This document shows, piece after piece, positions 3,226 to 32,243 of a DNA stretch of 64,000 nucleotides (position 1 is the first letter of the stretch; every line of letters starts with the position of its first letter). This stretch comes from a virus. Position numbers and translations under genes: made by a program. Location: the IMG/VR virus record IMGVR_UViG_3300034283_001913, positions 1-64,000 of that record. The stretch is one strand, 5' to 3'. Under the pieces are notes generated by a model. That model saw nothing but the letters and a program-made list of their open reading frames with translations. It had not been told where the DNA came from and made no database searches.

Positions 3226-3239
3226 AAACTAGGTGGTTT

Positions 3240-3273
3240 TTTGCAAATCTCGATGGTAATCTGTATATTATAG
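3240..3273 (+). promoter_or_regulatory. Putative phage promoter TTTG-N20-TATATTATAG
   Basis: Intergenic. The same bipartite motif and spacing recur at 6862, 23182 and 27786. Confidence 0.65.
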
Positions 3274-3291
3274 AAAACAAAGAGTCGTGGC

Positions 3292-6849: not shown

Positions 6850-6861
6850 TTTCTTAATCTG

Positions 6862-6894
6862 TTTGTAGGTACGGTTTTTTTTATTATATTATAG
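6862..6894 (+). promoter_or_regulatory. Putative phage promoter TTTG-N19-TATATTATAG
   Basis: Intergenic copy of the recurrent motif. Confidence 0.65.
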
Positions 6895-6913
6895 ATGAAA
6901 ACGTGTTAATATC

Positions 6914-7735: not shown

Positions 7736-7757
7736 GTCAGTCATGTCAGAAACCAAC
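7736..7757 (+). promoter_or_regulatory. Bipartite motif GTCAGTCAT..AAACCAAC over the start codon (candidate antisense target 1)
   Basis: 9+8 nt exactly complementary to 30861-30881; includes the AT of ATG 7743. Confidence 0.55.
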
Positions 7758-8075
7758 ACTGAAAGAGAGCCGACAGAACAAGAGCTCCAAGCGTATCGCG
7801 AGAACATGAAAAAGTTCTATGATCAGCAGATACCTTTTCTAAAAAAACAAAAAGAGTATGAAATGCTTTTGGCGGATATTGAAGAGGCTAGAGCTAAACG
7901 TATCACTATGAGTATGCGTATTGCTCAGATTATGGCCGGTCCTCCAGAAGAACCTTCAGAAGAAGAAAAAGCCAAAGCTGTAGAAGCTATGCAGCAGGCT
8001 ATTCAGAATGATGAATCTTCTGAAGAAGAATCTGAAGAAACTTCTCCTAAACCGAGAAAACTTAAAGCGAAGTAA
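7743..8075 (+). CDS. Hypothetical acidic coiled-coil protein
   Basis: 110-aa ORF, first gene after the promoter. Confidence 0.75.
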   Translation: MSETNTEREPTEQELQAYRENMKKFYDQQIPFLKKQKEYEMLLADIEEARAKRITMSMRIAQIMAGPPEEPSEEEKAKAVEAMQQAIQNDESSEEESEETSPKPRKLKAK

Positions 8076-13095: not shown

Positions 13096-15864
13096 ATGAA
13101 GGTATTAAATGCGATGCAACTTAAGGCGGGGGCCAAGGCGGAATATAACCGCATGGGCTCAATAACCCAGCCTGTTCAGTTTTTACCAAGAGACGAAAAA
13201 GACCAAGAGTGGACTGCATGGAACATGGACTGGTTAGAGTGGCAAGGTCTAAAGCAGATTAGAAGAAATGCTCGCCGGCTTATGAAAAACTATAAGTTGG
13301 CTAAAGGGATCATTGATAAAACAGATTATATCGTTGAGAATGATAATGAGATGAGGGATATGGTTGAAACACTTGTTCAAGAAGACTTTAGTGCTCTTGA
13401 GCTCAAGTTTTACCCAATCATCCCGAATGTTATCAATGTTCTTACATCAGAGTTTGCAAAGCGTAATACTAAAATCACCTTTAAAGCGGTAGATGAGTAT
13501 ACTTACAATGAGAAGATGGAGCTCAAGCGTCAAGCTATTGAGAACGTTCTTCTACAAGATGCTCAGCAAAAGCTTATTACAAAGATGATTGAAATGGGCG
13601 CAGACCCTCAGGACCCTGAGATTCAACAGAGTATGCAGGAACAATTAGCTCCTGAAAATCTGAAGAGTCTGCCGGATATTCAAAACTTCTTTGACAAGAG
13701 CTATCGTAGCCTTTGTGAAGAGTGGGCTCAGCATCAGTACAAAATTGATGAAGATCGATTTAAGATGGATGAGCTTGAAGAACGTGGTTTCCGGGACAGC
13801 TTGATTACTGATCGTGAATACTGGCACTTCCGTATGGGAGAAGATGATTACGATATCGAACTGTGGAATCCGGTACTTACTTTCTACCACAAGTCTCCGG
13901 ATGTGCGTTACATTTCTCAAGGTAACTGGGTCGGAAAGATTGAGATGATGACTGTGGCAGACGTCATAGATAAATACGGCTATCTGATGACTCAAGAACA
14001 ACTTGAGTCTCTTGAAGCTATTTATCCAGTAAGATCTGCAGGTTATCCGCTCCAGGGTTACCAGAACGATGGTAGCTACTACGATGCTACTAAAACACAC
14101 GAGTGGAACACCAATATGCCAGGTCTGGCCTATCGCCAGTTTGTATCCATGTATGATAACTTCATCTACAACGGTGGAGATATTATCAACTGGATTATGG
14201 GTGAATCAGAAGACTACTTTGACATGGGCATGGCCTTTATGCTCCGTACTACAACAGCATACTGGAAATCTCAGCGCAAAGTAGGCCATCTTACAAAGAT
14301 CACAGAGTCTGGCGAAATGATTACAGATATTGTAGATGAAAGCTTTAAGGTTACCGACAAGCCTATCTATGATACTACTCTTATCAAAAACAAAAATAAA
14401 GACAATCTTATCTTCGGCGAACATGTTGAATGGATCTGGATTAACCAGGTTTGGGGAGGCGTAAAGATTGGTCCTAACCACCCATCTTTCTGGGGTATGA
14501 ATAACCCGGGCGGTGTAAACCCTATGTATCTGGGTGTTGGCCAAAACAAAATAGGACCTCTCAAGTTCCAGTTCAAAGGAGACAGTACTTTATACGGTTG
14601 CAAACTTCCTGTAGAAGGATCTGTATTTTCAGATAGAAATACACGCTCTACCGCGCTTGTAGATCTTATGAAACCGTATCAGATTGGATACAACATTGTA
14701 AACAATCAGATTGCAGATATCCTAGTGGATGAGCTGGGGACCGTGATTCTGTTGGATCAGAACGCGCTGCCTCGCCATTCACTAGGTGAAGATTGGGGTA
14801 AGAACAACTTGGCTAAGGCTTATGTAGCAATGAAGAATTTTCAGATGCTACCTCTTGATACAAGTATTACAAATACTGAGAACCCGCTTAATTTCCAGCA
14901 TTTTCAAAAGCTTGACCTTGAGCAAACTCAGCGCTTAATGTCAAGGATACAGCTTGCCAACTATTTCAAGCAACAGGCTTTTGAAACAATAGGAATCACT
15001 CCGCAACGCTTGGGTCAGCAGATTGGTCAAACCAATACAGCTACCGGTATAGAACAAGCTATCGCAGGATCCTATGCTCAGACAGAGATGTACTTTATAC
15101 AGCACTCTGATTATCTAATGCCTCGAGTTCACCAGATGAGAACGGATCTTGCTCAGCATTATCATTCTACAAAACCTTCTCTGCGTCTTCAGTACTCTAC
15201 CAGTAAAGATGAGGCTATTAATTTCCAAATCAACGGTACAGATCTTTTGCTTCGTGATCTTAACGTCTATGCTACAACCCGGGCAAATCACAGAGCCGTA
15301 GTAGAGCAAATGAAAAATCTTGCTGTATCTAATAATACAGCTGGGGCATCTATATACGATCTGGGAACTATTATCCAATCAGAGTCTCTTGCAGAACTGG
15401 ATCATGTTCTCAAGAATACCGAGAAAAAAGCTCAAAAGCAGCGTCAGGAACAGATGGCTCACGAGCAGAAGATGAAAGAGATGGAGATGCAGCAGAAGAC
15501 TCAAGAAAAGCAAATGGAGCTGGATCACAAAATGGCCGAGGCAGAAAAAGACCGTCGAAAGGATCTTCTTGTTGCAGAAATTCGAGCAGCGGGTTATGGC
15601 GCTATGCAAGACATCGATCAGAACATGCAAAGCGATTTCAGAGATACTATGGAAGAAATGCGCAAAACAGACGAGTTTCAGCAGACTATGGGCTTTAACC
15701 AAAACAAAGAAACAGCTAAGCAAATGGCTCATCAGGATAAGATGAATCTTGAAAGAGAAAAGCTTGCTGCTCAGAAGGATATGAAGCAGATGGAGATTGA
15801 AATAGCTCGCACTAATAAGAACAAGTATGATGTTCCAAAAAAGTCCGAATCTAAGAAAAAATAA
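13096..15864 (+). CDS. Portal protein
   Basis: 922 aa with YPIIPNVINVL, LVDLMKPYQ..YNIV.NQI and GITPQRLGQ motifs and a C-terminal coiled coil; crAss-like synteny. Confidence 0.9.
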   Translation: MKVLNAMQLKAGAKAEYNRMGSITQPVQFLPRDEKDQEWTAWNMDWLEWQGLKQIRRNARRLMKNYKLAKGIIDKTDYIVENDNEMRDMVETLVQEDFSALELKFYPIIPNVINVLTSEFAKRNTKITFKAVDEYTYNEKMELKRQAIENVLLQDAQQKLITKMIEMGADPQDPEIQQSMQEQLAPENLKSLPDIQNFFDKSYRSLCEEWAQHQYKIDEDRFKMDELEERGFRDSLITDREYWHFRMGEDDYDIELWNPVLTFYHKSPDVRYISQGNWVGKIEMMTVADVIDKYGYLMTQEQLESLEAIYPVRSAGYPLQGYQNDGSYYDATKTHEWNTNMPGLAYRQFVSMYDNFIYNGGDIINWIMGESEDYFDMGMAFMLRTTTAYWKSQRKVGHLTKITESGEMITDIVDESFKVTDKPIYDTTLIKNKNKDNLIFGEHVEWIWINQVWGGVKIGPNHPSFWGMNNPGGVNPMYLGVGQNKIGPLKFQFKGDSTLYGCKLPVEGSVFSDRNTRSTALVDLMKPYQIGYNIVNNQIADILVDELGTVILLDQNALPRHSLGEDWGKNNLAKAYVAMKNFQMLPLDTSITNTENPLNFQHFQKLDLEQTQRLMSRIQLANYFKQQAFETIGITPQRLGQQIGQTNTATGIEQAIAGSYAQTEMYFIQHSDYLMPRVHQMRTDLAQHYHSTKPSLRLQYSTSKDEAINFQINGTDLLLRDLNVYATTRANHRAVVEQMKNLAVSNNTAGASIYDLGTIIQSESLAELDHVLKNTEKKAQKQRQEQMAHEQKMKEMEMQQKTQEKQMELDHKMAEAEKDRRKDLLVAEIRAAGYGAMQDIDQNMQSDFRDTMEEMRKTDEFQQTMGFNQNKETAKQMAHQDKMNLEREKLAAQKDMKQMEIEIARTNKNKYDVPKKSESKKK

Positions 15865-15956: not shown

Positions 15957-15976
15957 GTCAGTCAAGTATAACCAAC
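15957..15976 (+). promoter_or_regulatory. Bipartite motif GTCAGTCA..AACCAAC (candidate antisense target 2)
   Basis: 8+4+7 nt complementary to 30861-30881; ends 7 nt before ATG 15984. Confidence 0.55.
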
Positions 15977-15983
15977 CAACAAT

Positions 15984-17237
15984 ATGGCAGAGAATAATGA
16001 AAGCGGTACAACTACCGTAACAACCGTAGACTTGGATATTGATAATATCCTAGGTACCCCAGGCGCTGAGAATATCATGGTTCCCAGCGACTCACAAAAG
16101 AAAGAGACTGCAAAGCCCTCAATCTTTAGTGCAAAACCTGTAGACATGTCGTTCCTTGAAAAGGATGAAGAAGATGATGAATCTGAGTCTCAACCAGCAG
16201 CCCAGGAAACAAAAGCTGCAGCTGTTACTCAGGAACAGATTCTAGAGCAGCTGGATGAGCTGAATGACTTTGAGACCGATAAAGGTACAGGTCGCCCTAA
16301 AACGGATAAGAGTGCTATGATTGAGCTTACTAAAAAGCTAATCGAAGCCGGTAAACTGATTCCGTTTGATGACGACAAGCCTATCGAAAAGTACACAGTT
16401 CAAGATTTTGAAGAGCTATTAGAAGCTAATATGCAGGAAAAAGAACGCAAGATGCGTGAAGAAGTTCCTCTAGAGTTTTTTGATAGCTTGCCTCAAGAGC
16501 TCCAGTATGCCGCCAAGTATGTTGCAGATGGAGGAAACGATCTAAAAGGTCTGTTTCGCACATTGGCTCAGGTAGAAGAAGTACGATCGCTAGATCCTCG
16601 AGATGAAAGCGACCAGGAGCAAATCGTTCGTGCTTACCTACACGCTACCCAGTTTGGAACCTCTGAGGAGATCGAAGAGGAAATTACAGCCTGGAAAGAT
16701 CGTGATGAACTAGGCTCAAAAGCTAACAAGTTCAAGCCAAAATTGGATGCGATGCAGCAACAGATTGTTGCCCGTCAACTGAACCAGCAAGAGCATATGC
16801 GTAAACAGCAGGCCGTTCAAGCTCAGATGTACATGGAGAATGTGTATAAAACACTAGACCCAGGCGACCTCAATGGAATCAAGTTAGACAAGAAGACTCA
16901 AAGCATGTTGTATGCAGGTCTTGTTCAACCTAACTACCCATCTATCTCCGGAAGACCTACCAACCTTTTGGGACATCTTTTGGAAAAGTATCAGTATGTA
17001 GAGCCTCGTCATGACCTTATCGCGGAAGCTCTGTGGCTGTTATCTGATCCAGATGGATATCGTGCAAAGGTGAAAGAGGGCGGAAAGAAAGAAGCTAATG
17101 AGAAGACAGCTAGAATGCTTAAAACAGAGCAGGCTAATAAGAACTCTTCGTACACACCAGATGACGAAGAGCGTATTACACCTCAGCAGTCTCAAAAGAA
17201 GCTTCAAAGAGCTAGTAACAATTTTTTCAAACGATAA
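15984..17237 (+). CDS. Acidic scaffold-like protein (gene preceding MCP in crAss-like phages)
   Basis: D/E-rich N-terminus and helical core; lies between portal and capsid genes. Confidence 0.7.
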   Translation: MAENNESGTTTVTTVDLDIDNILGTPGAENIMVPSDSQKKETAKPSIFSAKPVDMSFLEKDEEDDESESQPAAQETKAAAVTQEQILEQLDELNDFETDKGTGRPKTDKSAMIELTKKLIEAGKLIPFDDDKPIEKYTVQDFEELLEANMQEKERKMREEVPLEFFDSLPQELQYAAKYVADGGNDLKGLFRTLAQVEEVRSLDPRDESDQEQIVRAYLHATQFGTSEEIEEEITAWKDRDELGSKANKFKPKLDAMQQQIVARQLNQQEHMRKQQAVQAQMYMENVYKTLDPGDLNGIKLDKKTQSMLYAGLVQPNYPSISGRPTNLLGHLLEKYQYVEPRHDLIAEALWLLSDPDGYRAKVKEGGKKEANEKTARMLKTEQANKNSSYTPDDEERITPQQSQKKLQRASNNFFKR

Positions 17238-17268: not shown

Positions 17269-18894
17269 ATGAGTACTCCAGTTTTAAACAATGGTCTATT
17301 TCTCCGTGATACGAACTACCAGGCTAGTTCTCACGTAGATTCTTACCACTTAGTAAACATGCTGAAAAATGCAGAACCTATGGACTTAGGTCCAGTAGAC
17401 ATCTGGGCTATGACCCAGAAGGTTGAAATGCCTCTTTATCAGCTTTCTAGCTTTGGTGGAAAGAATATTATTATGGTTGATAATGCTCGTGGTGAGTATA
17501 AGTGGCAGACTCCTGTGTCTCAGGATCTTCCTTATATCATCGAAGACATTGAACCACAAAACACTACTAAAGGTGTTGACGGTACAACCTTCAAAATCAA
17601 AATCAACCGTCGCGAGTTTGGACATGGTGATATCATCACTTATGACAAGTACAATGGTTGTGAAATGTACATCACTGCTGATGATATCCTTCCTATGGGA
17701 GATGGTTTCATCTACACTGTGCAGTTGGTAAACAATGACAACTACAAGTATTTGGATAACAAATATCTTGCAAACGGAACTAAGATCTTCCGTAAAGGTT
17801 CGGCTCGTGGTGAATACGGTGAGCGTTTCTCCGACATCATGACTCGCTCTGGTTTCCGCGAGTTCTACAACTTCGTAGGTGGAGCTGAAGCACACGTACA
17901 CTACTCAGTATCTTCTCGCGCTGACTTGATGGCTCGTGGTGGTATGAATGCTGATGGTACAGTTCCTGTAACTGAAATCTGGCGCAACTTTGATAAGAGC
18001 ATGGACCCTGCAATCACTAAGATTGAAGACATGGTATCAAAGATGGGCAAAGATTATGTAAAGCGTGCTATGGGTAACGGTACACTTACTCGTACATTCC
18101 TTACTACGATGGAAGCAGCTCACCTTACTAAGGTTGCTACAGACATCGAGACTTACTTGATGTGGGGACATGGTGGTCGTGTTAAACAAGACGGACCAGA
18201 TGATATCCGTATGTCAGTAGGTCTTTGGAAGCAGTTGGATAACTCCTTCAAGCGTGTTTACAATAAGAGCTCTTTCAACCTTGAGTTGTTCCGTGCTGAA
18301 TTGTACAACTTCTACGCGGGTCGTGTTGAGTTCCAGGGTCCAGATCCTAAGCGTCAATTGATCGTTCAAACCGGTATGGGTGGCATGCGTCTTGTTAACG
18401 AAGCTATCAAGCGTGAAGCTGCTAACTCAGGTCTTGTAATCCAGGCTGCTCAGAATAACGGTATCGGAGCTATCTCCGGCCAGGGCATGGATCTTGGATT
18501 CGGATTTGCGTACACTAGCTACGTGATCCCATTCCTTGCTAACGTGAAGTTTGTTCTTAACCCAGCGTTTGATAACGTACATACCAACGATATTGAAAAC
18601 CCAATCATCGATGGTAACCCATTGTCATCTTATAGCTTTATCATCTTCGATATCACTGATACCGGAAACGATAACATCTTCATGCTGAAGTTATCTTGGG
18701 ATAACCAGTTGAAGTGGTGGTACCAGAACGGTACTATGGATTACATGGGCCGTACACAAGGATTTGCATCTACCGGTCAGTTTAACGGTTACCGCGTATA
18801 CATGACTCAAACAATGCCAGCAATCTGGGTGAAAGACCCAACCAAGGTATTGAAGATCGTTATGCGTAACCCAATCACCGGCGGATCATTCTAA
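17269..18894 (+). CDS. Major capsid protein
   Basis: 541 aa with codon bias typical of high expression, GLWKQL and C-terminal IWVKDPTK motifs; crAss-like position. Confidence 0.88.
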   Translation: MSTPVLNNGLFLRDTNYQASSHVDSYHLVNMLKNAEPMDLGPVDIWAMTQKVEMPLYQLSSFGGKNIIMVDNARGEYKWQTPVSQDLPYIIEDIEPQNTTKGVDGTTFKIKINRREFGHGDIITYDKYNGCEMYITADDILPMGDGFIYTVQLVNNDNYKYLDNKYLANGTKIFRKGSARGEYGERFSDIMTRSGFREFYNFVGGAEAHVHYSVSSRADLMARGGMNADGTVPVTEIWRNFDKSMDPAITKIEDMVSKMGKDYVKRAMGNGTLTRTFLTTMEAAHLTKVATDIETYLMWGHGGRVKQDGPDDIRMSVGLWKQLDNSFKRVYNKSSFNLELFRAELYNFYAGRVEFQGPDPKRQLIVQTGMGGMRLVNEAIKREAANSGLVIQAAQNNGIGAISGQGMDLGFGFAYTSYVIPFLANVKFVLNPAFDNVHTNDIENPIIDGNPLSSYSFIIFDITDTGNDNIFMLKLSWDNQLKWWYQNGTMDYMGRTQGFASTGQFNGYRVYMTQTMPAIWVKDPTKVLKIVMRNPITGGSF

Positions 18895-18906: not shown

Positions 18907-19016
18907 GCACTGGCAAGGGAGTACCCGTAAGTCTCCCTTGCAATCAGTGCCTTAGCTCAGATGGTGTTTTGCCGGCAAACAGTAGAAACACGAAAGGTTC
19001 GATCCTGATCTGAGCT
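18907..19016 (+). ncRNA. Candidate structured RNA (long hairpin plus multi-stem junction with T-loop-like GGTTCGATCC)
   Basis: Pairings GCACTG/CAGTGC, GCAAGGGAG/CTCCCTTGC, AGCTCAGAT/ATCTGAGCT, GTGTTT/AAACAC and AGG-ttcgat-CCT in a GC-rich intergenic island. Confidence 0.6.
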
Positions 19017-19020
19017 CTAA

Positions 19021-19039
19021 CGTCAGTAATATAACCAAC
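19021..19039 (+). promoter_or_regulatory. Bipartite motif CGTCAGT..AACCAAC (candidate antisense target 3)
   Basis: 7+7 nt complementary to 30861-30882; ends 14 nt before ATG 19054. Confidence 0.55.
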
Positions 19040-19053
19040 CAACAATCAACAAA

Positions 19054-20070
19054 ATGAGTAACTTTATCATGACAGAGCTCCCTACGCTTTCAGAGCAAGG
19101 GAATGTTTCAATTAAACCGTTCTTTGACCCTAATGTGGATAATCTAGGTTTGCAGAACTATGGCTTATCTCTTTTCGATGGAGTATTCCACGAAGAGCAA
19201 CTTGCTTGCATAGAGCAAAATGGTACAAAAAGGTATATCACCGGTTTGAATCCTTTTGCTCCAGAAGTAAAACTTCTTCCTCAAGAACTTCGTGAGGCTC
19301 GGATTAAAGAGATTAACAAAATAGTTTCACAGCTAGAGGCTGAGCTTAATGCTAATATTCTTGATCCTAACGATCCGGATTTTTGGAATAAGGTAAAGCT
19401 TCTGCGTCCTGATAACTATGAGTTTTGGGAAAAGATCTCAATTCGCTGTGGTAATCAGCCGGTTCCTCTTGATCCGTCGAAAAATCCTTTTGATTTGATC
19501 AAGTTATATGCTGTTGAAGCTGGAGGATTCTCAATTGTAGCAAAGAGCTACGAAGATGCGAGAAGTCGTCCGGTGTCACCAAAGTTCTACCTCGATAAAT
19601 CTATCAACACTATTGCTAGCAAAACAGAGATCAAAAAGCTTAAGAACAAAGCTCTTGTTGAACTTGAAGGTTTATTCCGTTCTAAACAGAATAAGCTTAT
19701 GTATGTAGCAAAAGTTGTAGACGGTAACAGTGTTCAATACAAGAAGTCTACACCTAATGATGTTATCTATGATAACATGGATAAGTTTATCAACGGTGAA
19801 GGTGTAGAAAGCAACATACGTCGTGCAGCTGAAACCTTTATTGATGCTGCCTCTTTAGATATCGAAACTCTTAAGCTTAAAGCTCTTGTGAAAGATTCAA
19901 CTTTCTACAAGTTGATTTCACCTAAAGGTGACGGCATGATTTACCACTTAGCTACAAACAGTATTATGGGCCGTAATCCATCAGAGTGTTTGGAGTTTTT
20001 GAAGAATCCTTTAAATGATAAAATCCTCGAAGATCTTCTTAAGATTGTAGAGGCTAACTGGAAAAAATAA
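19054..20070 (+). CDS. Conserved crAss-like protein downstream of MCP
   Basis: 338 aa; synteny with the capsid module. Confidence 0.7.
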   Translation: MSNFIMTELPTLSEQGNVSIKPFFDPNVDNLGLQNYGLSLFDGVFHEEQLACIEQNGTKRYITGLNPFAPEVKLLPQELREARIKEINKIVSQLEAELNANILDPNDPDFWNKVKLLRPDNYEFWEKISIRCGNQPVPLDPSKNPFDLIKLYAVEAGGFSIVAKSYEDARSRPVSPKFYLDKSINTIASKTEIKKLKNKALVELEGLFRSKQNKLMYVAKVVDGNSVQYKKSTPNDVIYDNMDKFINGEGVESNIRRAAETFIDAASLDIETLKLKALVKDSTFYKLISPKGDGMIYHLATNSIMGRNPSECLEFLKNPLNDKILEDLLKIVEANWKK

Positions 20071-20081
20071 AACATCATACC

Positions 20082-20267
20082 ATGGCTAAAAATCAAGCAG
20101 GCGTTGGAGGGGTAAAGAACCCTAACACCGTATTCACAGAAGTAGTGAAGAATCCTACCCGTTATAAGGGCGGCATGAACACTTGTCCTGAAGTTGTTAA
20201 AAACCCTACTCGTTATACAGGCGGTCTGAATCAGGCAGCTTGTGACGTTCCTAAAAAAGGTAAGTAA
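20082..20267 (+). CDS. Small basic protein with internal repeat
   Basis: EVVKNPTRY[KT]GG[ML]N occurs twice. Confidence 0.7.
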   Translation: MAKNQAGVGGVKNPNTVFTEVVKNPTRYKGGMNTCPEVVKNPTRYTGGLNQAACDVPKKGK

Positions 20268-20446
20268 TGGCAAAGAAATCTAGTAAACCCGGACCTAATA
20301 AGGTAAACATGAAGACTGTAGGTAAAACTACAGCTTTAGTTACAAACTATGGTAAGAACTACAAAGGACCTCAGCCTAATAAGTCTAGAACAGGAAAACC
20401 TGCTCCAGCTTTCAAAAAAGGCGGAACGCTTAAGAAAAAGAAATAA
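20267..20446 (+). CDS. Small Lys-rich protein (59 aa, not in ORF track)
   Basis: Manual translation MAKKSSKPGPNKV...PAFKKGGTLKKKK; TAATG overlap with the previous ORF. Confidence 0.7.
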   Translation: MAKKSSKPGPNKVNMKTVGKTTALVTNYGKNYKGPQPNKSRTGKPAPAFKKGGTLKKKK

Positions 20447-20448
20447 CT

Positions 20449-20577
20449 GTGGCAAAACAACAAACTAAGGTATCTTCATCAAAAACAGTTTTTGGTAAGA
20501 GAAGAGTAGGTAAAGCTAAAAAGCGTAAATCGCCTAAGGATAAACTTACTAAACCTTATATTGGACAAGGAAAGTAA
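20449..20577 (+). CDS. Small Lys/Arg-rich protein (42 aa, GTG start, not in ORF track)
   Basis: MAKQQTKVSSSKTVFGKRRVGKAKKRKSPKDKLTKPYIGQGK fills the gap between neighbours. Confidence 0.6.
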   Translation: MAKQQTKVSSSKTVFGKRRVGKAKKRKSPKDKLTKPYIGQGK

Positions 20578-20581
20578 AACT

Positions 20582-20734
20582 ATGGCAGCCAAAGATAAAA
20601 AGTGGATACAAAAAGCAGTGAATCCTAAACATAAGGGTTACTGCACCCCTATGTCTAAGCCGACATGTACACCAAAAAGAAAGGCTCTTGCCAGAACTTT
20701 TAAAGCAATGGCTAAAGCTAGAAAAGGAAAATAA
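20582..20734 (+). CDS. Small basic protein (50 aa, not in ORF track)
   Basis: MAAKDKKWIQKAVNPKHKGYCTPMSKPTCTPKRKALARTFKAMAKARKGK. Confidence 0.7.
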   Translation: MAAKDKKWIQKAVNPKHKGYCTPMSKPTCTPKRKALARTFKAMAKARKGK

Positions 20735-20736
20735 CC

Positions 20737-20925
20737 ATGGCTAAAACTAAAAGCAAAGTAAACCAAGCAGGAGTCTATACCAAACCAGGTATGAGAAAAT
20801 CTTTGTTCAACAAGATTAAAGCTGGTTCTAAAGGCGGAGATCCCGGCGAATGGTCTGCTCGTAAAGCTCAGTTACTTGCTAAAGAGTACAAGTCAAAAGG
20901 TGGAGGATACAAAACCAAGAAGTAA
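20737..20925 (+). CDS. Small basic protein
   Basis: GEWSARKAQLLAKEYKSKGGGY motif recalled from aquatic phage small proteins. Confidence 0.75.
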   Translation: MAKTKSKVNQAGVYTKPGMRKSLFNKIKAGSKGGDPGEWSARKAQLLAKEYKSKGGGYKTKK

Positions 20926-21191
20926 TGGCAAAGAATCCTCAGCAAAGTCTTAGAGACTGGACAGATCAAAAGTGGATGACTTCTGGCACTTATGCTAATA
21001 AGAAGAAGGGATCATCTAAAGAAGTAAAGTCAAAGGGTAAGAAAAGATATCTTCCCGAATCAGCTTGGTCTTCTTTATCTGCCGGAGAAAAGGCTGCGAC
21101 TAATAAAGCAAAAGCTGAGGGTAATAGAAAAGGTAAACAGTTTGTTTCCCAACCAAAAAATATAAAGCAAAAAACTAAAAAACACAGATAA
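20925..21191 (+). CDS. Small basic protein
   Basis: QSLRDWTDQKW...RYLPESAW..LS..EKAATNKAK...KQFVSQP; coupled overlaps at both ends. Confidence 0.75.
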   Translation: MAKNPQQSLRDWTDQKWMTSGTYANKKKGSSKEVKSKGKKRYLPESAWSSLSAGEKAATNKAKAEGNRKGKQFVSQPKNIKQKTKKHR

Positions 21192-21349
21192 TGGCAAAGA
21201 ACGCAAAACAACAAGCGGCAATAGCGATGTCTATGAAAGCTGTAGGTAAGAAGCCTAAGATGGCTAAAGGTGGTGCAGCAGGCACTGCTCTTAAGAATGC
21301 CTTGATTAAGGCAGGTTATAAAAAAGGCGGATCTACTAAGAAAAAGTAA
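21191..21349 (+). CDS. Small Lys/Ala-rich protein (52 aa, not in ORF track)
   Basis: MAKNAKQQAAIAMSMKAVGKKPKMAKGG...YKKGGSTKKK; TAATG overlaps at both ends. Confidence 0.7.
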   Translation: MAKNAKQQAAIAMSMKAVGKKPKMAKGGAAGTALKNALIKAGYKKGGSTKKK

Positions 21350-21603
21350 TGGCAAAGTCACCAGCTTGGCAGCGCAAAGAAGGCAAGTCTCCTAGTGGAG
21401 GACTCAATGCTAAAGGTAGAGCTTCTTATAACAGAGCTAACCCTGGTAAACCTGGGCTTAAAGCTCCACAACCTGAAGGTGGTTCTAGAAAGAAATCTTT
21501 CTGTGCCCGAATGTCAGGTATGAAGAAGAAGCTTACTAGCAGTAAGACAGCTAATGATCCCAATAGCCGGATCAATAAAGCGCTGCGTAAATGGAAATGT
21601 TAA
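21349..21603 (+). CDS. Small basic protein
   Basis: MAKSPAWQRKEGK..GGLNAKGRASYN...RKKSFCARM...DPNSRINKALRKWKC, a motif recalled from many phages. Confidence 0.8.
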   Translation: MAKSPAWQRKEGKSPSGGLNAKGRASYNRANPGKPGLKAPQPEGGSRKKSFCARMSGMKKKLTSSKTANDPNSRINKALRKWKC

Positions 21604-21622
21604 CCTTTAAATACTATAAACA

Positions 21623-21859
21623 ATGAAAAAAGTAACACCAAAAGCAAAAACCGGAAAGATGGTAAACCCTAATCCTACAGCTAAAGCGTCTCCTATGAAA
21701 AGCGGAGGAAAGGTTATGGCTAAAACAGGAAGAACTATTACTAAAGATCAGCCTCTGAATGCTCAAAATTCAGGTATGGCTAAGTACGGTAAGTCTATGA
21801 CTAAAGCTATGTACGGCAAGTCTATGATGAAAAAGGGTGGTGCCAAAAAAGGCAAGTAA
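21623..21859 (+). CDS. Small Lys/Met-rich protein with xxKxG repeats
   Basis: Contains KAKTG, MKSGG, MAKTG, MAKYG, KAMYG and MKKGG. Confidence 0.7.
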   Translation: MKKVTPKAKTGKMVNPNPTAKASPMKSGGKVMAKTGRTITKDQPLNAQNSGMAKYGKSMTKAMYGKSMMKKGGAKKGK

Positions 21860-21867
21860 TCTAAGAG

Positions 21868-23165: not shown

Positions 23166-23181
23166 AAAATATTTATATTAG

Positions 23182-23215
23182 TTTGCAAAATCTGATATAA
23201 AATCTTATATTATAG
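23182..23215 (+). promoter_or_regulatory. Putative phage promoter TTTG-N20-TATATTATAG
   Basis: Intergenic copy of the recurrent motif. Confidence 0.65.
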
Positions 23216-23251
23216 TGTTAATATTGTTTATCAACCTAAAATCAAACAAAA

Positions 23252-24856: not shown

Positions 24857-24895
24857 TATTTTCTTGTAATCTGGGAGAGTGAACTCTCTCCGTAT

Positions 24896-24926
24896 ATAGG
24901 GGGAGAGTTCATCTCCCCCTATTTTT
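24896..24926 (+). terminator. Rho-independent terminator
   Basis: ATAGGGGGAGA-gttca-TCTCCCCCTAT perfect 11-bp stem followed by TTTT. Confidence 0.85.
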
Positions 24927-24935
24927 ATTATAGCT

Positions 24936-25487
24936 ATGGCCCAACACGTTCTTAGTCTAGAAGCTCCAGATACGATGAATAAAACTATTCTTCGTATTGT
25001 TGATACAAGTGTTTATAATACCCAGATTCCTGTAACCTGCCCTTTATTGCAAGTAACGCTTCCTGGTTTTGATAGACCTGTAAATTTTGACAGTTCTTTT
25101 ATACAACCCGGTTTTATCTTAAATTTGACAGCTTGTGATTTAGAAATCCAGACGGCCGGTTGTGGTACAACCTATAATAATCTTGCAGATGGGATTTACA
25201 TTATTAAGTATAGCGTATCTCCTAATGACCAAGTTTATGTAGAGTATAACCATCTTCGTATGACTACAGCGTTGTGGAAGTATTACAACTTGATGTGTGA
25301 TCTAGACTTGGGCGCTTGCGATCCTCCGGAAAAAGTAAAGGACAAGCTTAATAAGCTTCGTCTTATCCGGATGTATTTGGATGCTGCAAAATCTCTTGTA
25401 GAGTTTTGCCATCAGCCTGATAAAGGAATGCAGATCTTTAATTACGCCGTGCGTCAGCTGGACAAAATGGATTGCAAGTCTTGTTAG
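24936..25487 (+). CDS. Putative tail/fibre-docking structural protein
   Basis: 183 aa with LADGIYIIKYSVSP motif and helical C-terminus. Confidence 0.55.
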   Translation: MAQHVLSLEAPDTMNKTILRIVDTSVYNTQIPVTCPLLQVTLPGFDRPVNFDSSFIQPGFILNLTACDLEIQTAGCGTTYNNLADGIYIIKYSVSPNDQVYVEYNHLRMTTALWKYYNLMCDLDLGACDPPEKVKDKLNKLRLIRMYLDAAKSLVEFCHQPDKGMQIFNYAVRQLDKMDCKSC

Positions 25488-25497
25488 TGTAACCAAC
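25483..25497 (+). promoter_or_regulatory. Bipartite motif GTTAGT..AACCAAC (candidate antisense target 4, one G-U pair)
   Basis: Ends 14 nt before ATG 25512; the C-to-T change remains pairable with G. Confidence 0.4.
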
Positions 25498-25511: not shown

Positions 25512-25700
25512 ATGACTTGTTCAAATTGCGGTGCTAAATTATCTTGTGGCTGTCAAAAAAGAGTAGCTTCTAATGGAGCTAATGTGTGTTCTACTTGTCA
25601 AATTTCTTATGAAGCTATGCTTAAAACACCGTCAGCCCCATCTAGTCCAAATGCTCCTTCCAATATAAATATCAAGTATAATCCTCCTGGTAGACGTTAA
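25512..25700 (+). CDS. Small Cys-rich protein
   Basis: CSNCGAKLSCGCQ...CSTC. Confidence 0.65.
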   Translation: MTCSNCGAKLSCGCQKRVASNGANVCSTCQISYEAMLKTPSAPSSPNAPSNINIKYNPPGRR

Positions 25701-27785: not shown

Positions 27786-27822
27786 TTTGTAAAAGAGCTA
27801 ATAATTCCCTATATTATAGGGA
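27786..27822 (+). promoter_or_regulatory. Putative phage promoter TTTG-N20-TATATTATAG
   Basis: Intergenic copy; the proximal box lies in a perfect TCCCTATA-t-TATAGGGA inverted repeat. Confidence 0.65.
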
Positions 27823-27837
27823 GAATAAAAGATAAAA

Positions 27838-29329: not shown

Positions 29330-29896
29330 ATGGCAACTTGTCCAACATGTAAATGCACAAAACTACCGTGTGGGTGTGAAGATCAAGGTCTTCACACCGG
29401 CTCACCGTGTGCTATTAATACACCATATTGTCCAAATCCTGAACCGTGTCCAGAGACATTTAGCGATTGCTGCATTATCCACAATGGAGATACTATTTAT
29501 GCGGGAGCTAATAATCCTACTCAAATATTTCCGATTGCTCAAGGAGAAAGACTTTGTGATATTCTTCAAAAAATGGTAGTGTGGCTTCAAGATCCTGAAG
29601 CTGTTATAGGAGACTGTCCGGCCGTTATAGGTATTAAATCTATGGCTATCACTTCTACAAGTATTCAGGTTGTTTGGACTACTTCCGCAGGAGCTGTTAA
29701 CTATGTAGTAGGCTATACTACCGATCCAGGTGTTGTAGCTTGGACAAATAGTGCTTCTCTTGCACCTACTACGACTAGTTATACTATTACCGGACTTACG
29801 GCAAATACTACATATTTTATAAGAGTAGTACCTACATGCTTAGCTCCTGCAAGTAACCCTTACGTCATCATTCAAGTAACGACCAAATCAGTGTAA
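29330..29896 (+). CDS. Cys-rich protein with fibronectin type III domain
   Basis: ITSTSIQVVW...SYTITGLTANTTYFIRV. Confidence 0.75.
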   Translation: MATCPTCKCTKLPCGCEDQGLHTGSPCAINTPYCPNPEPCPETFSDCCIIHNGDTIYAGANNPTQIFPIAQGERLCDILQKMVVWLQDPEAVIGDCPAVIGIKSMAITSTSIQVVWTTSAGAVNYVVGYTTDPGVVAWTNSASLAPTTTSYTITGLTANTTYFIRVVPTCLAPASNPYVIIQVTTKSV

Positions 29897-29897
29897 A

Positions 29898-30842
29898 ATG
29901 GCTCCAGTACCAGCAACGCTTCAAATAGACTTTACCAGTAATTATCCAGCAGGATCTCATAGAGTTTGCTATCGAATCGCAGGATCAGGATCACCTTATA
30001 CATGCACTACAGTAGCATGTACACCGTTTGTGCCCCCTGCTCCTCCTGTAGGTTGTCAAGCTCTTATTGCTATTACAGTAGACAACGAATCTTGTGATCC
30101 TGTAACTTACGAAGGATATGTTCAAGCTACCTGCGAAGCACTAAGTTCTACTGCGGGTAGAGGACCTTTCACAATTACATTTACTCCTGCGCCTACGTGT
30201 ACTCCAGTAAGACTTCAGTGTAACAATGTAGACATACTTAGCATTACTATTACGAACGGCGGTACAGGTTACGATCCTCTTAGTCTTCCAAATGTAACTG
30301 CAGTTGGAGGAGGAGGAACTTCTGTTCTTACAGCTGTGGTAAGTGGAGGTGGAGTACTTACGGGAATAAATGTAGTATCTTCTTCTGGATATTCTTCTTT
30401 ACCGGCAATATCTATTGATCCATCACCTGCTCCAGGCGGCGTTCAAGCAACAGCGGTTGCGGTAATGTCTCCTTGTCCTGGATTTGTTGCAGGTGATAAC
30501 TGTGACGGATCATCTAAAGGTTCTATCGGTGAACAAGAAATTGGTGCAGATTTTAATATCTGTTATACCGGTGGTTTAAGTGGAGGAGGAACTCCTGTGT
30601 TCCCTTCAGAATATACAGCTACCAATGCTACAACAGAGTGTTGCTATGATTGTAGGATTTATACTATTTCCGCAATCGATCCATCAACTGCTGTAACTTA
30701 TAGCGATTGTACAAATAACGGTAATACTGCAACAGTAAACGTATTACTAGGAGCTCCTCCAACAATTATCTGCGCAACAGAGGGATCTGTTACTGCTTAT
30801 CCTTCTTCAGGTGTAAGTATTGTAATGGGAGCAGCTTGTTAA
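29898..30842 (+). CDS. Cys/Gly/Thr-rich structural protein
   Basis: SITITNGGTGY domain and a C-terminal Cys repeat shared with 25701..27785 (ICA.EGSV). Confidence 0.7.
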   Translation: MAPVPATLQIDFTSNYPAGSHRVCYRIAGSGSPYTCTTVACTPFVPPAPPVGCQALIAITVDNESCDPVTYEGYVQATCEALSSTAGRGPFTITFTPAPTCTPVRLQCNNVDILSITITNGGTGYDPLSLPNVTAVGGGGTSVLTAVVSGGGVLTGINVVSSSGYSSLPAISIDPSPAPGGVQATAVAVMSPCPGFVAGDNCDGSSKGSIGEQEIGADFNICYTGGLSGGGTPVFPSEYTATNATTECCYDCRIYTISAIDPSTAVTYSDCTNNGNTATVNVLLGAPPTIICATEGSVTAYPSSGVSIVMGAAC

Positions 30843-30848
30843 AAATAT

Positions 30849-30914
30849 GTCATGGGTAAAGTTGGTTTACTAATGACTGACGGCGGGGGCCCTGGGGAAA
30901 CTCAGGGCTCTTTT
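30849..30914 (+). ncRNA. Candidate antisense sRNA: GUUGG-loop hairpin, linker and terminator
   Basis: GTCAT-g-GGTAAA[GTTGG]TTTACT-a-ATGAC hairpin; 30861-30882 is complementary to four start-region motifs. Confidence 0.55.
30885..30914 (+). terminator. Rho-independent terminator with GAAA tetraloop
   Basis: GGGCCCTGGG-gaaa-CTCAGGGCTC followed by TTTT. Confidence 0.85.
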
Positions 30915-30920
30915 GCATCC

Positions 30921-30970
30921 TAAACCTAGAATGTTTATTTTTATCACTCAAAAAGTTTTTGTATATTATA
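30921..30970 (+). promoter_or_regulatory. TAAAC-N7-GTTTA palindrome followed by TATATTATA promoter-like box
   Basis: Palindrome at 30921-30937; TATATTATA at 30962-30970. Confidence 0.5.
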
Positions 30971-30985
30971 TCTGCCCAAGTCATA

Positions 30986-31573
30986 ATGGAAACATTTCAA
31001 AGCCCTGATATTAAAGCTCCTCGTTTTAGATTAACATCTAAGAGTTATCTCAATCGTGAGACCTTTGATGCTTTTTTCAAAAAGCATCCAGAGTATAGCT
31101 CTTACAACATGGAAGATGTTAAAAAAATCATTAACACTTTCAACGAGATGATTTACAAGGGGATTATAGAAGAGCGCGATGGAATAGAACTTCCGGAAAA
31201 TCTTGGGAATGTTTTTATAGGATCTTGTAAAGCTCCCAAAAAACAGAACACTGATTTTTATAAATCCAAGGTATATGGAACCAGAGTGATTAATCGTAAT
31301 CTTGCTTCTGATGGATACCTTGCTAAAATATTTTATACTAACTATCAAAACAGATACAAGTTTCGTAATGCGGGTCTTTGGAAACTAAAAGGTTGTCGGG
31401 ATTTTACTAGACTTGTTTCTTCTACATATAAAGAAGATTGGCCGAAATACATTGTTATAGAAGAGTACGTAAAGATTTCTTCTATGCTCAAGAAACATAA
31501 GATTAAATCTTATGCTAAGATGAAGAGCCAAGAGCCGATCCCAGATAATTATAATGAATTTGATCTAGACTAA
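30986..31573 (+). CDS. IHF/HU-like protein of the crAss-like tail module
   Basis: VKKIINTFNEMI...GIELPENLGNVFI; ATG 30986 chosen because it lies downstream of the promoter box. Confidence 0.6.
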   Translation: METFQSPDIKAPRFRLTSKSYLNRETFDAFFKKHPEYSSYNMEDVKKIINTFNEMIYKGIIEERDGIELPENLGNVFIGSCKAPKKQNTDFYKSKVYGTRVINRNLASDGYLAKIFYTNYQNRYKFRNAGLWKLKGCRDFTRLVSSTYKEDWPKYIVIEEYVKISSMLKKHKIKSYAKMKSQEPIPDNYNEFDLD

Positions 31574-31574
31574 G

Positions 31575-32243
31575 ATGATTACAGTAGGCGACAGCATCTC
31601 ACGAGTACGTAATGTGCTTAAAGCTGTTAAGGAAGATCCTTTCTTGACAGATAGATTTATAGCTAGTATTATTCTTAAATATGCTAAGCTATTGATTAAG
31701 CGTCAAGATGATGCTAATAAAATCATGCGCTTTCAAAGCTTGTTTGATGTTTTGCCTTGTGTAGATCTTATTGAAATAGATAGAGTAGAAGCTTGCTGTG
31801 GACCAATCAGATCCAAGTGTATTATTAAGCGTACTAAAGAGCGCTTACCTCAAATACTAGAGGGAACATACGGACCTCTTTTCAGATCTGTTACATCGAT
31901 TGATGGATCTGTAGAGCTTTTCAAAACTTATCCGGCTACATATACCGCGATGAGTAACACTACTAATTTTAAGTATAACAAGACAAAATACTTCTGGTAT
32001 CTTAACGGTTATCTATACTTTCCAAATATTGAGTGGGATGCTATTCGTATCGAAGCTTTATGGGACGGGGATGTAGAATATTTTAAGTGTGATGTTGACC
32101 CTTGTCTTCCTATTCAAGATCAATCATTCAGAATACCAGAATACTTGTTTGCTGAAATAGAGCAGATGGCTCTTAAGGAAATACTTACTACTGGTCAGAT
32201 TCCATCGGATGGTGCTGATAACCAGCAAAACATTCTTAGATAA
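31575..32243 (+). CDS. Putative tail ring protein
   Basis: 222 aa with KYFWYLNGYLYF...F.IPEYL...IEQM pattern; synteny. Confidence 0.65.
   Translation: MITVGDSISRVRNVLKAVKEDPFLTDRFIASIILKYAKLLIKRQDDANKIMRFQSLFDVLPCVDLIEIDRVEACCGPIRSKCIIKRTKERLPQILEGTYGPLFRSVTSIDGSVELFKTYPATYTAMSNTTNFKYNKTKYFWYLNGYLYFPNIEWDAIRIEALWDGDVEYFKCDVDPCLPIQDQSFRIPEYLFAEIEQMALKEILTTGQIPSDGADNQQNILR

Follow-up and report, generated by a model that had tools for sequence, protein, structure and literature searches.

A conserved 3′-UTR hairpin of an uncultured lake crAss-like phage is probably an RNA that tunes the translation of several virion genes

In an uncultured lake crAss-like phage, the tail-appendage operon ends in a hairpin that is probably a phage RNA tuning the translation of several virion genes. 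The element is single-copy and syntenic, it belongs to the plus-strand RNA, and in most relatives its G/U-rich loop, UUUGUUGGUUU, faces a C/A-rich leader, AAACCAACAA, located 5′ of start codons. On balance, we favour the reading that an antisense seed, embedded in the 3′-UTR and displayed in the hairpin loop, pairs with a phage-private leader box carried by a small regulon of virion genes.

The window analysed here comprises the initial 64 kb of a record (G000) of 82.6 kb (82,603 bp) that is estimated to be 69% complete. All of its long ORFs lie on the plus strand, and the features discussed below are collected in Table 1. The phage DNA was matched in 24 DNA runs, mostly lake-water metagenomes, with no RNA run among the matches listed, and Megablast against the phage collection gave no match. 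For the capsid protein, the nearest cultured phage is Leptolyngbya phage Lbo-JY46, at 28% identity. The MAGs that contain related contigs span many phyla (5 of 18 are labelled Bacteroidota), and no host was assigned from these. For the clade contigs L218–L235, the MAG labels include Micavibrio, Clostridium, Rickettsiales, Campylobacteraceae, Patescibacteria, Chitinophagaceae and others; the presence of this phage DNA in such MAGs likely reflects mis-binning.

We also observed a run of small Lys-rich ORFs (<80 aa), often starting with MAK, inside the capsid module (20071–21867), and, in the gap that follows the capsid gene (18907–19016), a structured element containing a T-arm-like GGTTCGATCC. 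The latter, in which ARAGORN called no tRNA, ends a few nucleotides 5′ of the target box at 19022. Sequence resembling it is present in L001, L007 and L081–L084, and a different structured stretch occupies the equivalent place in L008, L010, L022 and L027.

Table 1. Positions of the hairpin, the candidate target sites and the reference genes in the window
Feature	Position	Strand	Basis or detail
Site 1, gene 7743–8075 (110 aa)	7736–7757	+	GTCAGTCAT overlaps ATG 7743; AAACCAAC in codons 3–5
Portal gene	13096–15864	+	PHROGs
Site 2, leader of scaffold-like gene 15984–17237	15957–15980	+	5′ of ATG 15984
Major capsid protein (MCP) gene	17269–18894	+	PHROGs
Site 3, leader of post-MCP gene 19054–20070	19022–19043	+	5′ of ATG 19054
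Site 4 (GTTAGT variant), leader of 62-aa Cys-rich ORF 25512–25700	25483–25497	+	5′ of ATG 25512
Last gene of tail-appendage (tail-fibre) operon, 314 aa	29898–30842	+	ORF; 3′-UTR carries the hairpin
P1 hairpin, 11 bp	30849–30877	+	Computed fold
P1 loop GUUGG, invariant core	30861–30865	+	Fold; alignments of relatives
Linker UGACGGC, 7 nt	30878–30884	+	Sequence
Intrinsic terminator	30885–30916	+	Fold; 12-bp GC-rich stem (30885–30912), GAAA loop, then UUUU
Tail ring protein 2 gene, crAss type	31575–32243	+	Pfam CrAss_Ring_2, E 2.6e-21

Structure, strand and conservation of the hairpin

The original prediction described an 11-bp hairpin with a GUUGG loop, followed by a linker and a GAAA-loop terminator, and proposed that the RNA derives from a 3′-UTR. 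The architecture was borne out by the computed fold, in which P1 consists of 5 + 6 bp with one 1 × 1 internal loop and a 5-nt loop, GUUGG. P1 and the terminator together reached a dG of −30.9 kcal/mol with z of −4.9, and none of 200 shuffles folded equally well. A simple terminator scan missed the terminator because its U run has only 4 T. The stop codon of the upstream gene is located at 30840–30842, which places P1 on the sense strand between that codon and the terminator of its own gene; the 3′-UTR location is thus supported, for a hairpin conserved at the RNA level. The reverse complement of 30861–30881 is GTCAGTCATTAGTAAACCAAC. Moreover, the linker together with the 3′ arm of P1 reads AUGACUGAC, the complement of the GTCAGTCAT box. 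Only five nucleotides are exposed in this phage, and the remaining complementary segment is locked inside the 11-bp stem. The product of the hairpin-bearing gene gave weak PHROG matches to virion structural and baseplate proteins; it varies among relatives, with only four found, at 54–56% identity.

No Rfam family reached the gathering score in the whole window, and a search of 30780–30990 with E up to 10 returned only nine chance-level matches. A tRNA scan found none. A DGR target-site hairpin was rejected after self-BLAST of 29898–30960 against the genome, in which no template repeat was present beyond chance-level matches of 14–42 nt. A small ORF within the element was also rejected, as the 23-codon frame seen here is not kept in relatives (read by eye).

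Relatives were collected in two sets, one of 80 loci around ring protein 2 homologues with 53–78% identity and another, more diverse set of 80 loci. In most loci of the first set, the region upstream of the ring gene has the same layout, namely the stop codon of a variable gene, the hairpin, the linker, a GC-rich terminator and a promoter-like TATATTA. The hairpin is flanked by a highly variable gene on one side and by the conserved ring-protein block on the other. A covariance model built on an alignment of 57 unique copies gave exactly one plus-strand match in 78 of the 80 loci of the first set, the other two being without upstream DNA, and matches in 77 of the 80 more distant loci; G000 has one strong match. 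The model also matched once in each of the five genomes in which the hairpin lies ~1.9 kb, and not 0.7 kb, upstream of the ring gene. As for the three loci of the second set without a match, L290 does contain a hairpin that the filters missed, L316 has none within 4 kb, and L273 offers only 695 nt of upstream sequence. Two loci (L119 and L140) were left out of alignment A2 as chance GTTGGT matches, and the true hairpin of L119 was later located by the model elsewhere in its locus. GTTGG lies 9–32 nt 3′ of the stop codon of the upstream ORF in 58 of 60 unique copies. The terminator of the relatives keeps a covarying GC stem and has a longer U run. In the 57-copy alignment, read by eye, the sequence immediately 5′ of P1 shows no conserved motif resembling a promoter.

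The P1 stem of most relatives has 6–8 bp, with a loop of 11–12 nt. GTTGG is invariant in all 57 unique copies of the alignment and in 70 of 70 in a wider sample. Around this core, the stems change and still pair. In the 57 unique copies, 96.8% of the cells of the 6-bp stem pair, compared with 20–62% when the partners are slid. On the plus strand, 331 of 342 P1 cells pair, 81 of them as G·U, and the minus strand pairs in 255 of 342; the 81 G·U pairs would become A·C on the opposite strand. As the plus strand pairs better, G·U pairs included, the structure belongs to the plus-strand RNA, and not to DNA or an antisense transcript. In 71 model-aligned rows of the wider sample, double compensatory changes are present at all six P1 pairs. 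In these rows, whose alignment was fitted to the model and so favours the structure, 91.1% of the cells are paired versus 64.9% after shuffling, and the covariation score is 0.705 versus 0.240, with none of 500 shuffles reaching 0.705. The rows come from 70 sources, include one spurious minus-strand match in L097, and leave out duplicates, the variant loops of L287 (GTGAG) and L332 (CTTGG), and three loci that have the terminator only (L292, L280 and L304). The stems of the second set are unrelated in sequence (GUCAGG/CCUGAC, GGAGG/CCUCC, CAUAUG/CAUAUG and others), yet they fold into the same shape, and the loop across them stays U(U)UUGUUGGUUU(U).

A leader box at the start codons of virion genes

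Searching both strands of the 82,603-bp genome gave five copies of the pattern GTYAGT-N(0–14)-AACCAAC; 300 dinucleotide-preserving shuffles contained 0.057 on average and 2 at most. Four copies are sense and lie at start codons, precisely at the four initiation regions named in the original prediction. The motif itself spans 15957–15976 at site 2 and 19022–19039 at site 3. The fifth copy lies inside the hairpin, again as proposed, and is the sole antisense copy of the bipartite pattern in the genome. The spacers had been given as 2–5 nt, which needs correction: the sense sites have 9, 7, 5 and 2 nt between GTYAGT and AACCAAC, and the antisense copy has 8 nt. On its own, AACCAAC occurs at background frequency in the window (7 observed, 6.5 expected), and all seven copies fall within the five sites. 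Site 4 includes the stop codon of ORF 24936–25487.

We ranked 98 initiation regions, those of ORFs no shorter than 60 aa, by predicted pairing with the loop, 3′ arm and linker. The four sites took the first four ranks, in line with the partners proposed at the outset, in the order site 2 (−24.7 kcal/mol), site 1 (−23.8), site 3 (−19.9) and site 4 (−19.3), with −18.2 kcal/mol for the next best. An unrestricted scan of every 40-nt window of the genome was much less selective, placing site 2 at about rank 3, site 1 at about 10 and site 4 at about 16, with site 3 absent from the 27 best. A fifth sense AACCAAC leader is located outside the window on the minus strand (79102–79108 of G000), 10 nt 5′ of the ATG at 79091; the 138-aa minus-strand ORF that follows belongs to an oppositely oriented gene block and ranks 19th of 98 in pairing. 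We also noted a degenerate bipartite motif in the initiation region of the hairpin-bearing gene itself (29863–29900; rank 5 of 98, −18.2 kcal/mol), which may reflect chance or self-regulation.

Promoter-like TTTG-N(about 20)-TATATTATAG elements were seen at 3226–3291, 6850–6913, 23166–23251, 24857–24935 and 27786–27837. At most other operon starts, the TATATTATAG box lies just 3–25 nt from the ATG, without an AACCAAC leader. This spacing suggests that most operons produce leaderless or very short-leader mRNAs, unlike the few AACCAAC-leadered genes.

Among relatives, no 7-mer was more enriched than AACCAAC within 25 nt 5′ of ORF starts, with 140 copies observed and 5.8 expected over 1551 starts in 97 de-duplicated loci; the start assignment was crude, each ORF of 60 aa or more being taken to begin at its first ATG. 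The next box-derived words in the enrichment were ACCAACA, CCAACAA and AAACCAA. The box recurs before the same genes, namely the scaffold-like gene, the post-capsid gene and the small Cys-rich ORF, and in the post-capsid leader (orthologues of 19054) it is kept in most of 84 relatives. Of the 438 plus-strand box copies, 201 have an ORF start no more than 20 nt downstream. The majority 11-nt loop is the exact complement of the 11-nt leader consensus, AAACCAACAAA. Loop and box show no true compensatory covariation because both cores are invariant. Duplexes between element and leader were slightly stronger within the same genome than across genomes (−15.64 versus −14.80 kcal/mol; permutation p 0.011, n = 20), a difference confounded by phylogeny. 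Whole-genome counts of AACCAAC did not separate genomes with and without the hairpin.

Mimicry of rRNA by the hairpin loop was rejected in a weak test, in which a 16S rRNA contained no GUUGGU and its best duplex with the leader consensus reached −8.4 kcal/mol; this single 16S came from the Chitinophagaceae MAG that holds a related contig and may not be that of the phage's host.

Losses and variants among relatives

Three genomes (G023, G024 and G025; loci L292, L280 and L304) keep the terminator and the promoter, and their hairpin is gone. Searches of these whole records, which are 94, 97 and 69% complete, respectively, found no other copy of the hairpin. Their scaffold-like, post-capsid and Cys-rich leaders contain no ACCAAC; remnants such as AAACCACA or AAACCAAT are left, next to a newly appeared purine-rich tract. 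Sense boxes kept without the antisense copy, the combination at odds with the original prediction, were thus not found in these genomes, which have lost both; the outcome favours a link between hairpin and boxes. In a fourth genome (G021, L287) the loop is mutated to GUGAG and the leaders carry only an ACCAAT remnant. By the same rule, at least one ACCAAY leader is present at the capsid-module locus in 20 of 21 hairpin-bearing genomes, and on inspection in the 21st (G010) too. Hairpin and boxes were probably lost together in a single event.

The leaders of this hairpin-less subclade (L333–L340; G021 and G023–G025) carry purine-rich tracts of the GAAGAAAGAAG type, which may reflect a changed initiation signal or host. 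The GUGAG loop at L287 3279–3346 (with L334/L340, G021) is one of only two variant loops seen. By eye, and in this one lineage, there is a faint hint that this loop and the changed leader of the subclade, AAACCACA/AAATCACA, can form a duplex with one bulge.

The original prediction held that the targets are bipartite. Both boxes are indeed present in this genome; across the family, the second box did not hold up. Of the 10 genomes whose linker reads CUGAC, six (G000, c554, c049, G004, G007 and G009) have GTCAG leaders, as against 0 of 11 with CUAAC or CAAC linkers, an association confounded by shared ancestry. Among the other CUGAC-linker genomes, G006 and G002 are without GTCAG leaders, and the leaders of G008 and G010 were not captured. 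The second box is therefore limited to one subclade, and only the AACCAAC/GUUGG match is general. In this subclade the loop is closed to 5 nt because its 5′ side changed, and the second box may compensate for the closed loop. GTCAG lies a few nucleotides 3′ of a promoter-like TATATTA box and may therefore mark the transcription start instead.

A candidate was also found in the cultured phage Lbo-JY46, as a weak covariance-model match (25.8 bits, E 0.0025). It comprises a 7-bp A-U stem with the loop UUUGUUGGUUG, followed by a terminator, and it lies on the gene strand in a syntenic position, with the ring protein 2 homologue ~1.7 kb downstream. P1 was not formed in its minimum-energy fold. The genome showed no enrichment of ACCAAC in leaders. 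The post-capsid and scaffold-like leaders of Lbo-JY46 ranked 1 and 4 among 199 predicted partners of the hairpin, and they were not outstanding in the whole-genome duplex scan. Close relatives of its ring protein were absent from the viral collection. We treat the candidate as a lead only; if real, it offers a laboratory system.

A probable trans-acting RNA, its alternatives and its place among known regulators

In the mechanism that we propose, the mRNA of the tail-appendage operon would end in P1, the short linker and the intrinsic terminator, and P1 would present a G/U-rich loop complementary to the A/C-rich leader box AAACCAACAAA. The box occupies the position of a ribosome-binding site (RBS) before a small, fixed set of virion genes, and the putative regulon comprises the scaffold-like gene, the post-MCP gene, the small Cys-rich ORF and, in this phage, gene 7743. 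The 3′-UTR, acting either within the intact mRNA or after processing to a fragment of ~65 nt, would pair in trans with these leaders and alter their translation. Repression through an occluded initiation region is the most likely and the simplest outcome, and it would couple expression of the tail operon to the output of the head-assembly genes. In this subclade, the second box would extend the pairing, with GTCAGT(CA) in the leaders opposite (AU)GACUGAC in the 3′ arm and linker.

The same hairpin could instead work in cis, as a binding site whose loop is read by a protein of phage or host, a signal for stability or processing, or a helper of termination, with the leader box as an independent translation enhancer. 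The complementarity would then be a by-product of G/U-rich versus A/C-rich composition, and the G/U-rich loop and the A/C-rich leaders may each be selected separately. Several observations speak for this: the hairpin always adjoins the terminator and starts a few nucleotides after the stop codon, the Lbo-JY46 candidate retains the loop in a genome that lacks ACCAAC leaders, the duplex scan of the whole genome had little selectivity, and transcript and pairing are so far predictions. We nevertheless consider a cis role unlikely. It is difficult to reconcile with a top leader 7-mer, among all 7-mers, that complements the invariant loop core exactly, with the match extending over the full 11-nt loop and the 11-nt leader consensus, and with the disappearance of hairpin and boxes together at four separate loci in one subclade.

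The occurrence of the same 7–11-mer on both strands of intergenic DNA, near promoter-like boxes, might also mean that a single sequence-specific protein, a DNA-binding regulator or a polymerase factor, reads AAACCAACAAA either way in double-stranded DNA, the hairpin copy being a reverse-oriented site. The original prediction had likewise preferred RNA–RNA pairing to a DNA-binding protein. The flanking stems covary with G·U pairs that work only in the plus-strand RNA, the leader copies are almost always sense and beside an ATG, and the reverse copy is single and always in the loop, all of which makes such a site improbable. Recombination has been proposed for the promoter–stem-loop cassettes of T4-type phages, and the hairpin does lie exactly at a junction of this kind, where a highly variable gene meets the conserved ring-protein block. 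Hairpin, terminator and promoter could accordingly form a module-boundary cassette, kept alike by recombination at the hypervariable fibre gene and devoid of an RNA role. Recombination, however, would conserve sequence, and not unrelated stems that pair around an invariant loop; it also leaves the leader-box match and the joint loss unexplained, and we regard the cassette as highly improbable.

Pairing of the 3′-UTR seed with the virion-gene leaders thus remains the reading that we favour. A broader picture built on it is possible, and we put it forward tentatively. In that picture, AACCAAC would substitute for the RBS on a few virion mRNAs and the 3′-UTR hairpin would be its trans-acting anti-signal, the two forming a self-contained circuit for translational timing. 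The unit would be inherited across a large environmental crAss-like clade, possibly as far as a cultured cyanophage, and discarded when the leaders turn purine-rich.

Among known regulators, the bacterial base-pairing sRNAs derived from 3′-UTRs, of the CpxQ, SroC and DapZ type, offer one comparison. As in these, the hairpin lies between the stop codon and the shared intrinsic terminator of a protein-coding operon, and the complement of a short seed, more conserved than its surroundings, occurs where translation of several other mRNAs is initiated. The element differs in its origin, a lytic-type crAss-like phage, in its putative targets, the virion genes of that same phage, in displaying its seed in a hairpin loop, and in being known from sequence alone. 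GcvB of enterobacteria is an sRNA whose G/U-rich seed acts on C/A-rich translation-enhancing elements. The present element resembles it in its G/U-rich single-stranded seed and in the A/C-rich box that immediately precedes the regulon's start codons; unlike GcvB, it is a hairpin loop in a 3′-UTR and not a stand-alone sRNA, and its regulon would have only ~4–5 phage genes. The GcvB covariance model (Rfam) did not match in the window, nor in 30780–30990 at E up to 10.

The c4 antisense RNA of phages P1 and P7 and the CI RNA of P4 belong to the immunity regions of temperate phages. The hairpin shares their phage origin and would likewise pair through short boxes with sense copies near the ribosome-binding site, in this subclade in a putatively bipartite manner. 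The differences are the targets, here virion-gene leaders of a crAss-like phage, and a second box that is not general in the family. The c4 and CI RNAs, cited as precedents in the original prediction, gave no match in covariance-model searches (Rfam), either at gathering score in the window or in 30780–30990 at E up to 10. Full-text literature searches returned no description of such an element in crAss-like phages, which does not prove its absence. The text of a 2025 review (PMC12197685), apart from its Supplementary Table S1 of 38 sRNAs without function, makes no mention of crAss, Bacteroid or capsid.

What the element would mean, if our reading is true, concerns a group that is among the most abundant phages known and for which, to our knowledge, very little has been learned about post-transcriptional control. 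The phage would encode, in the hairpin, an RNA that regulates its own head-assembly genes. Signal and anti-signal would both be readable from metagenomes, which would permit comparative tests without culture. Moreover, the pair would give a pointer to how initiation regions are recognised on mRNAs without a Shine-Dalgarno sequence.
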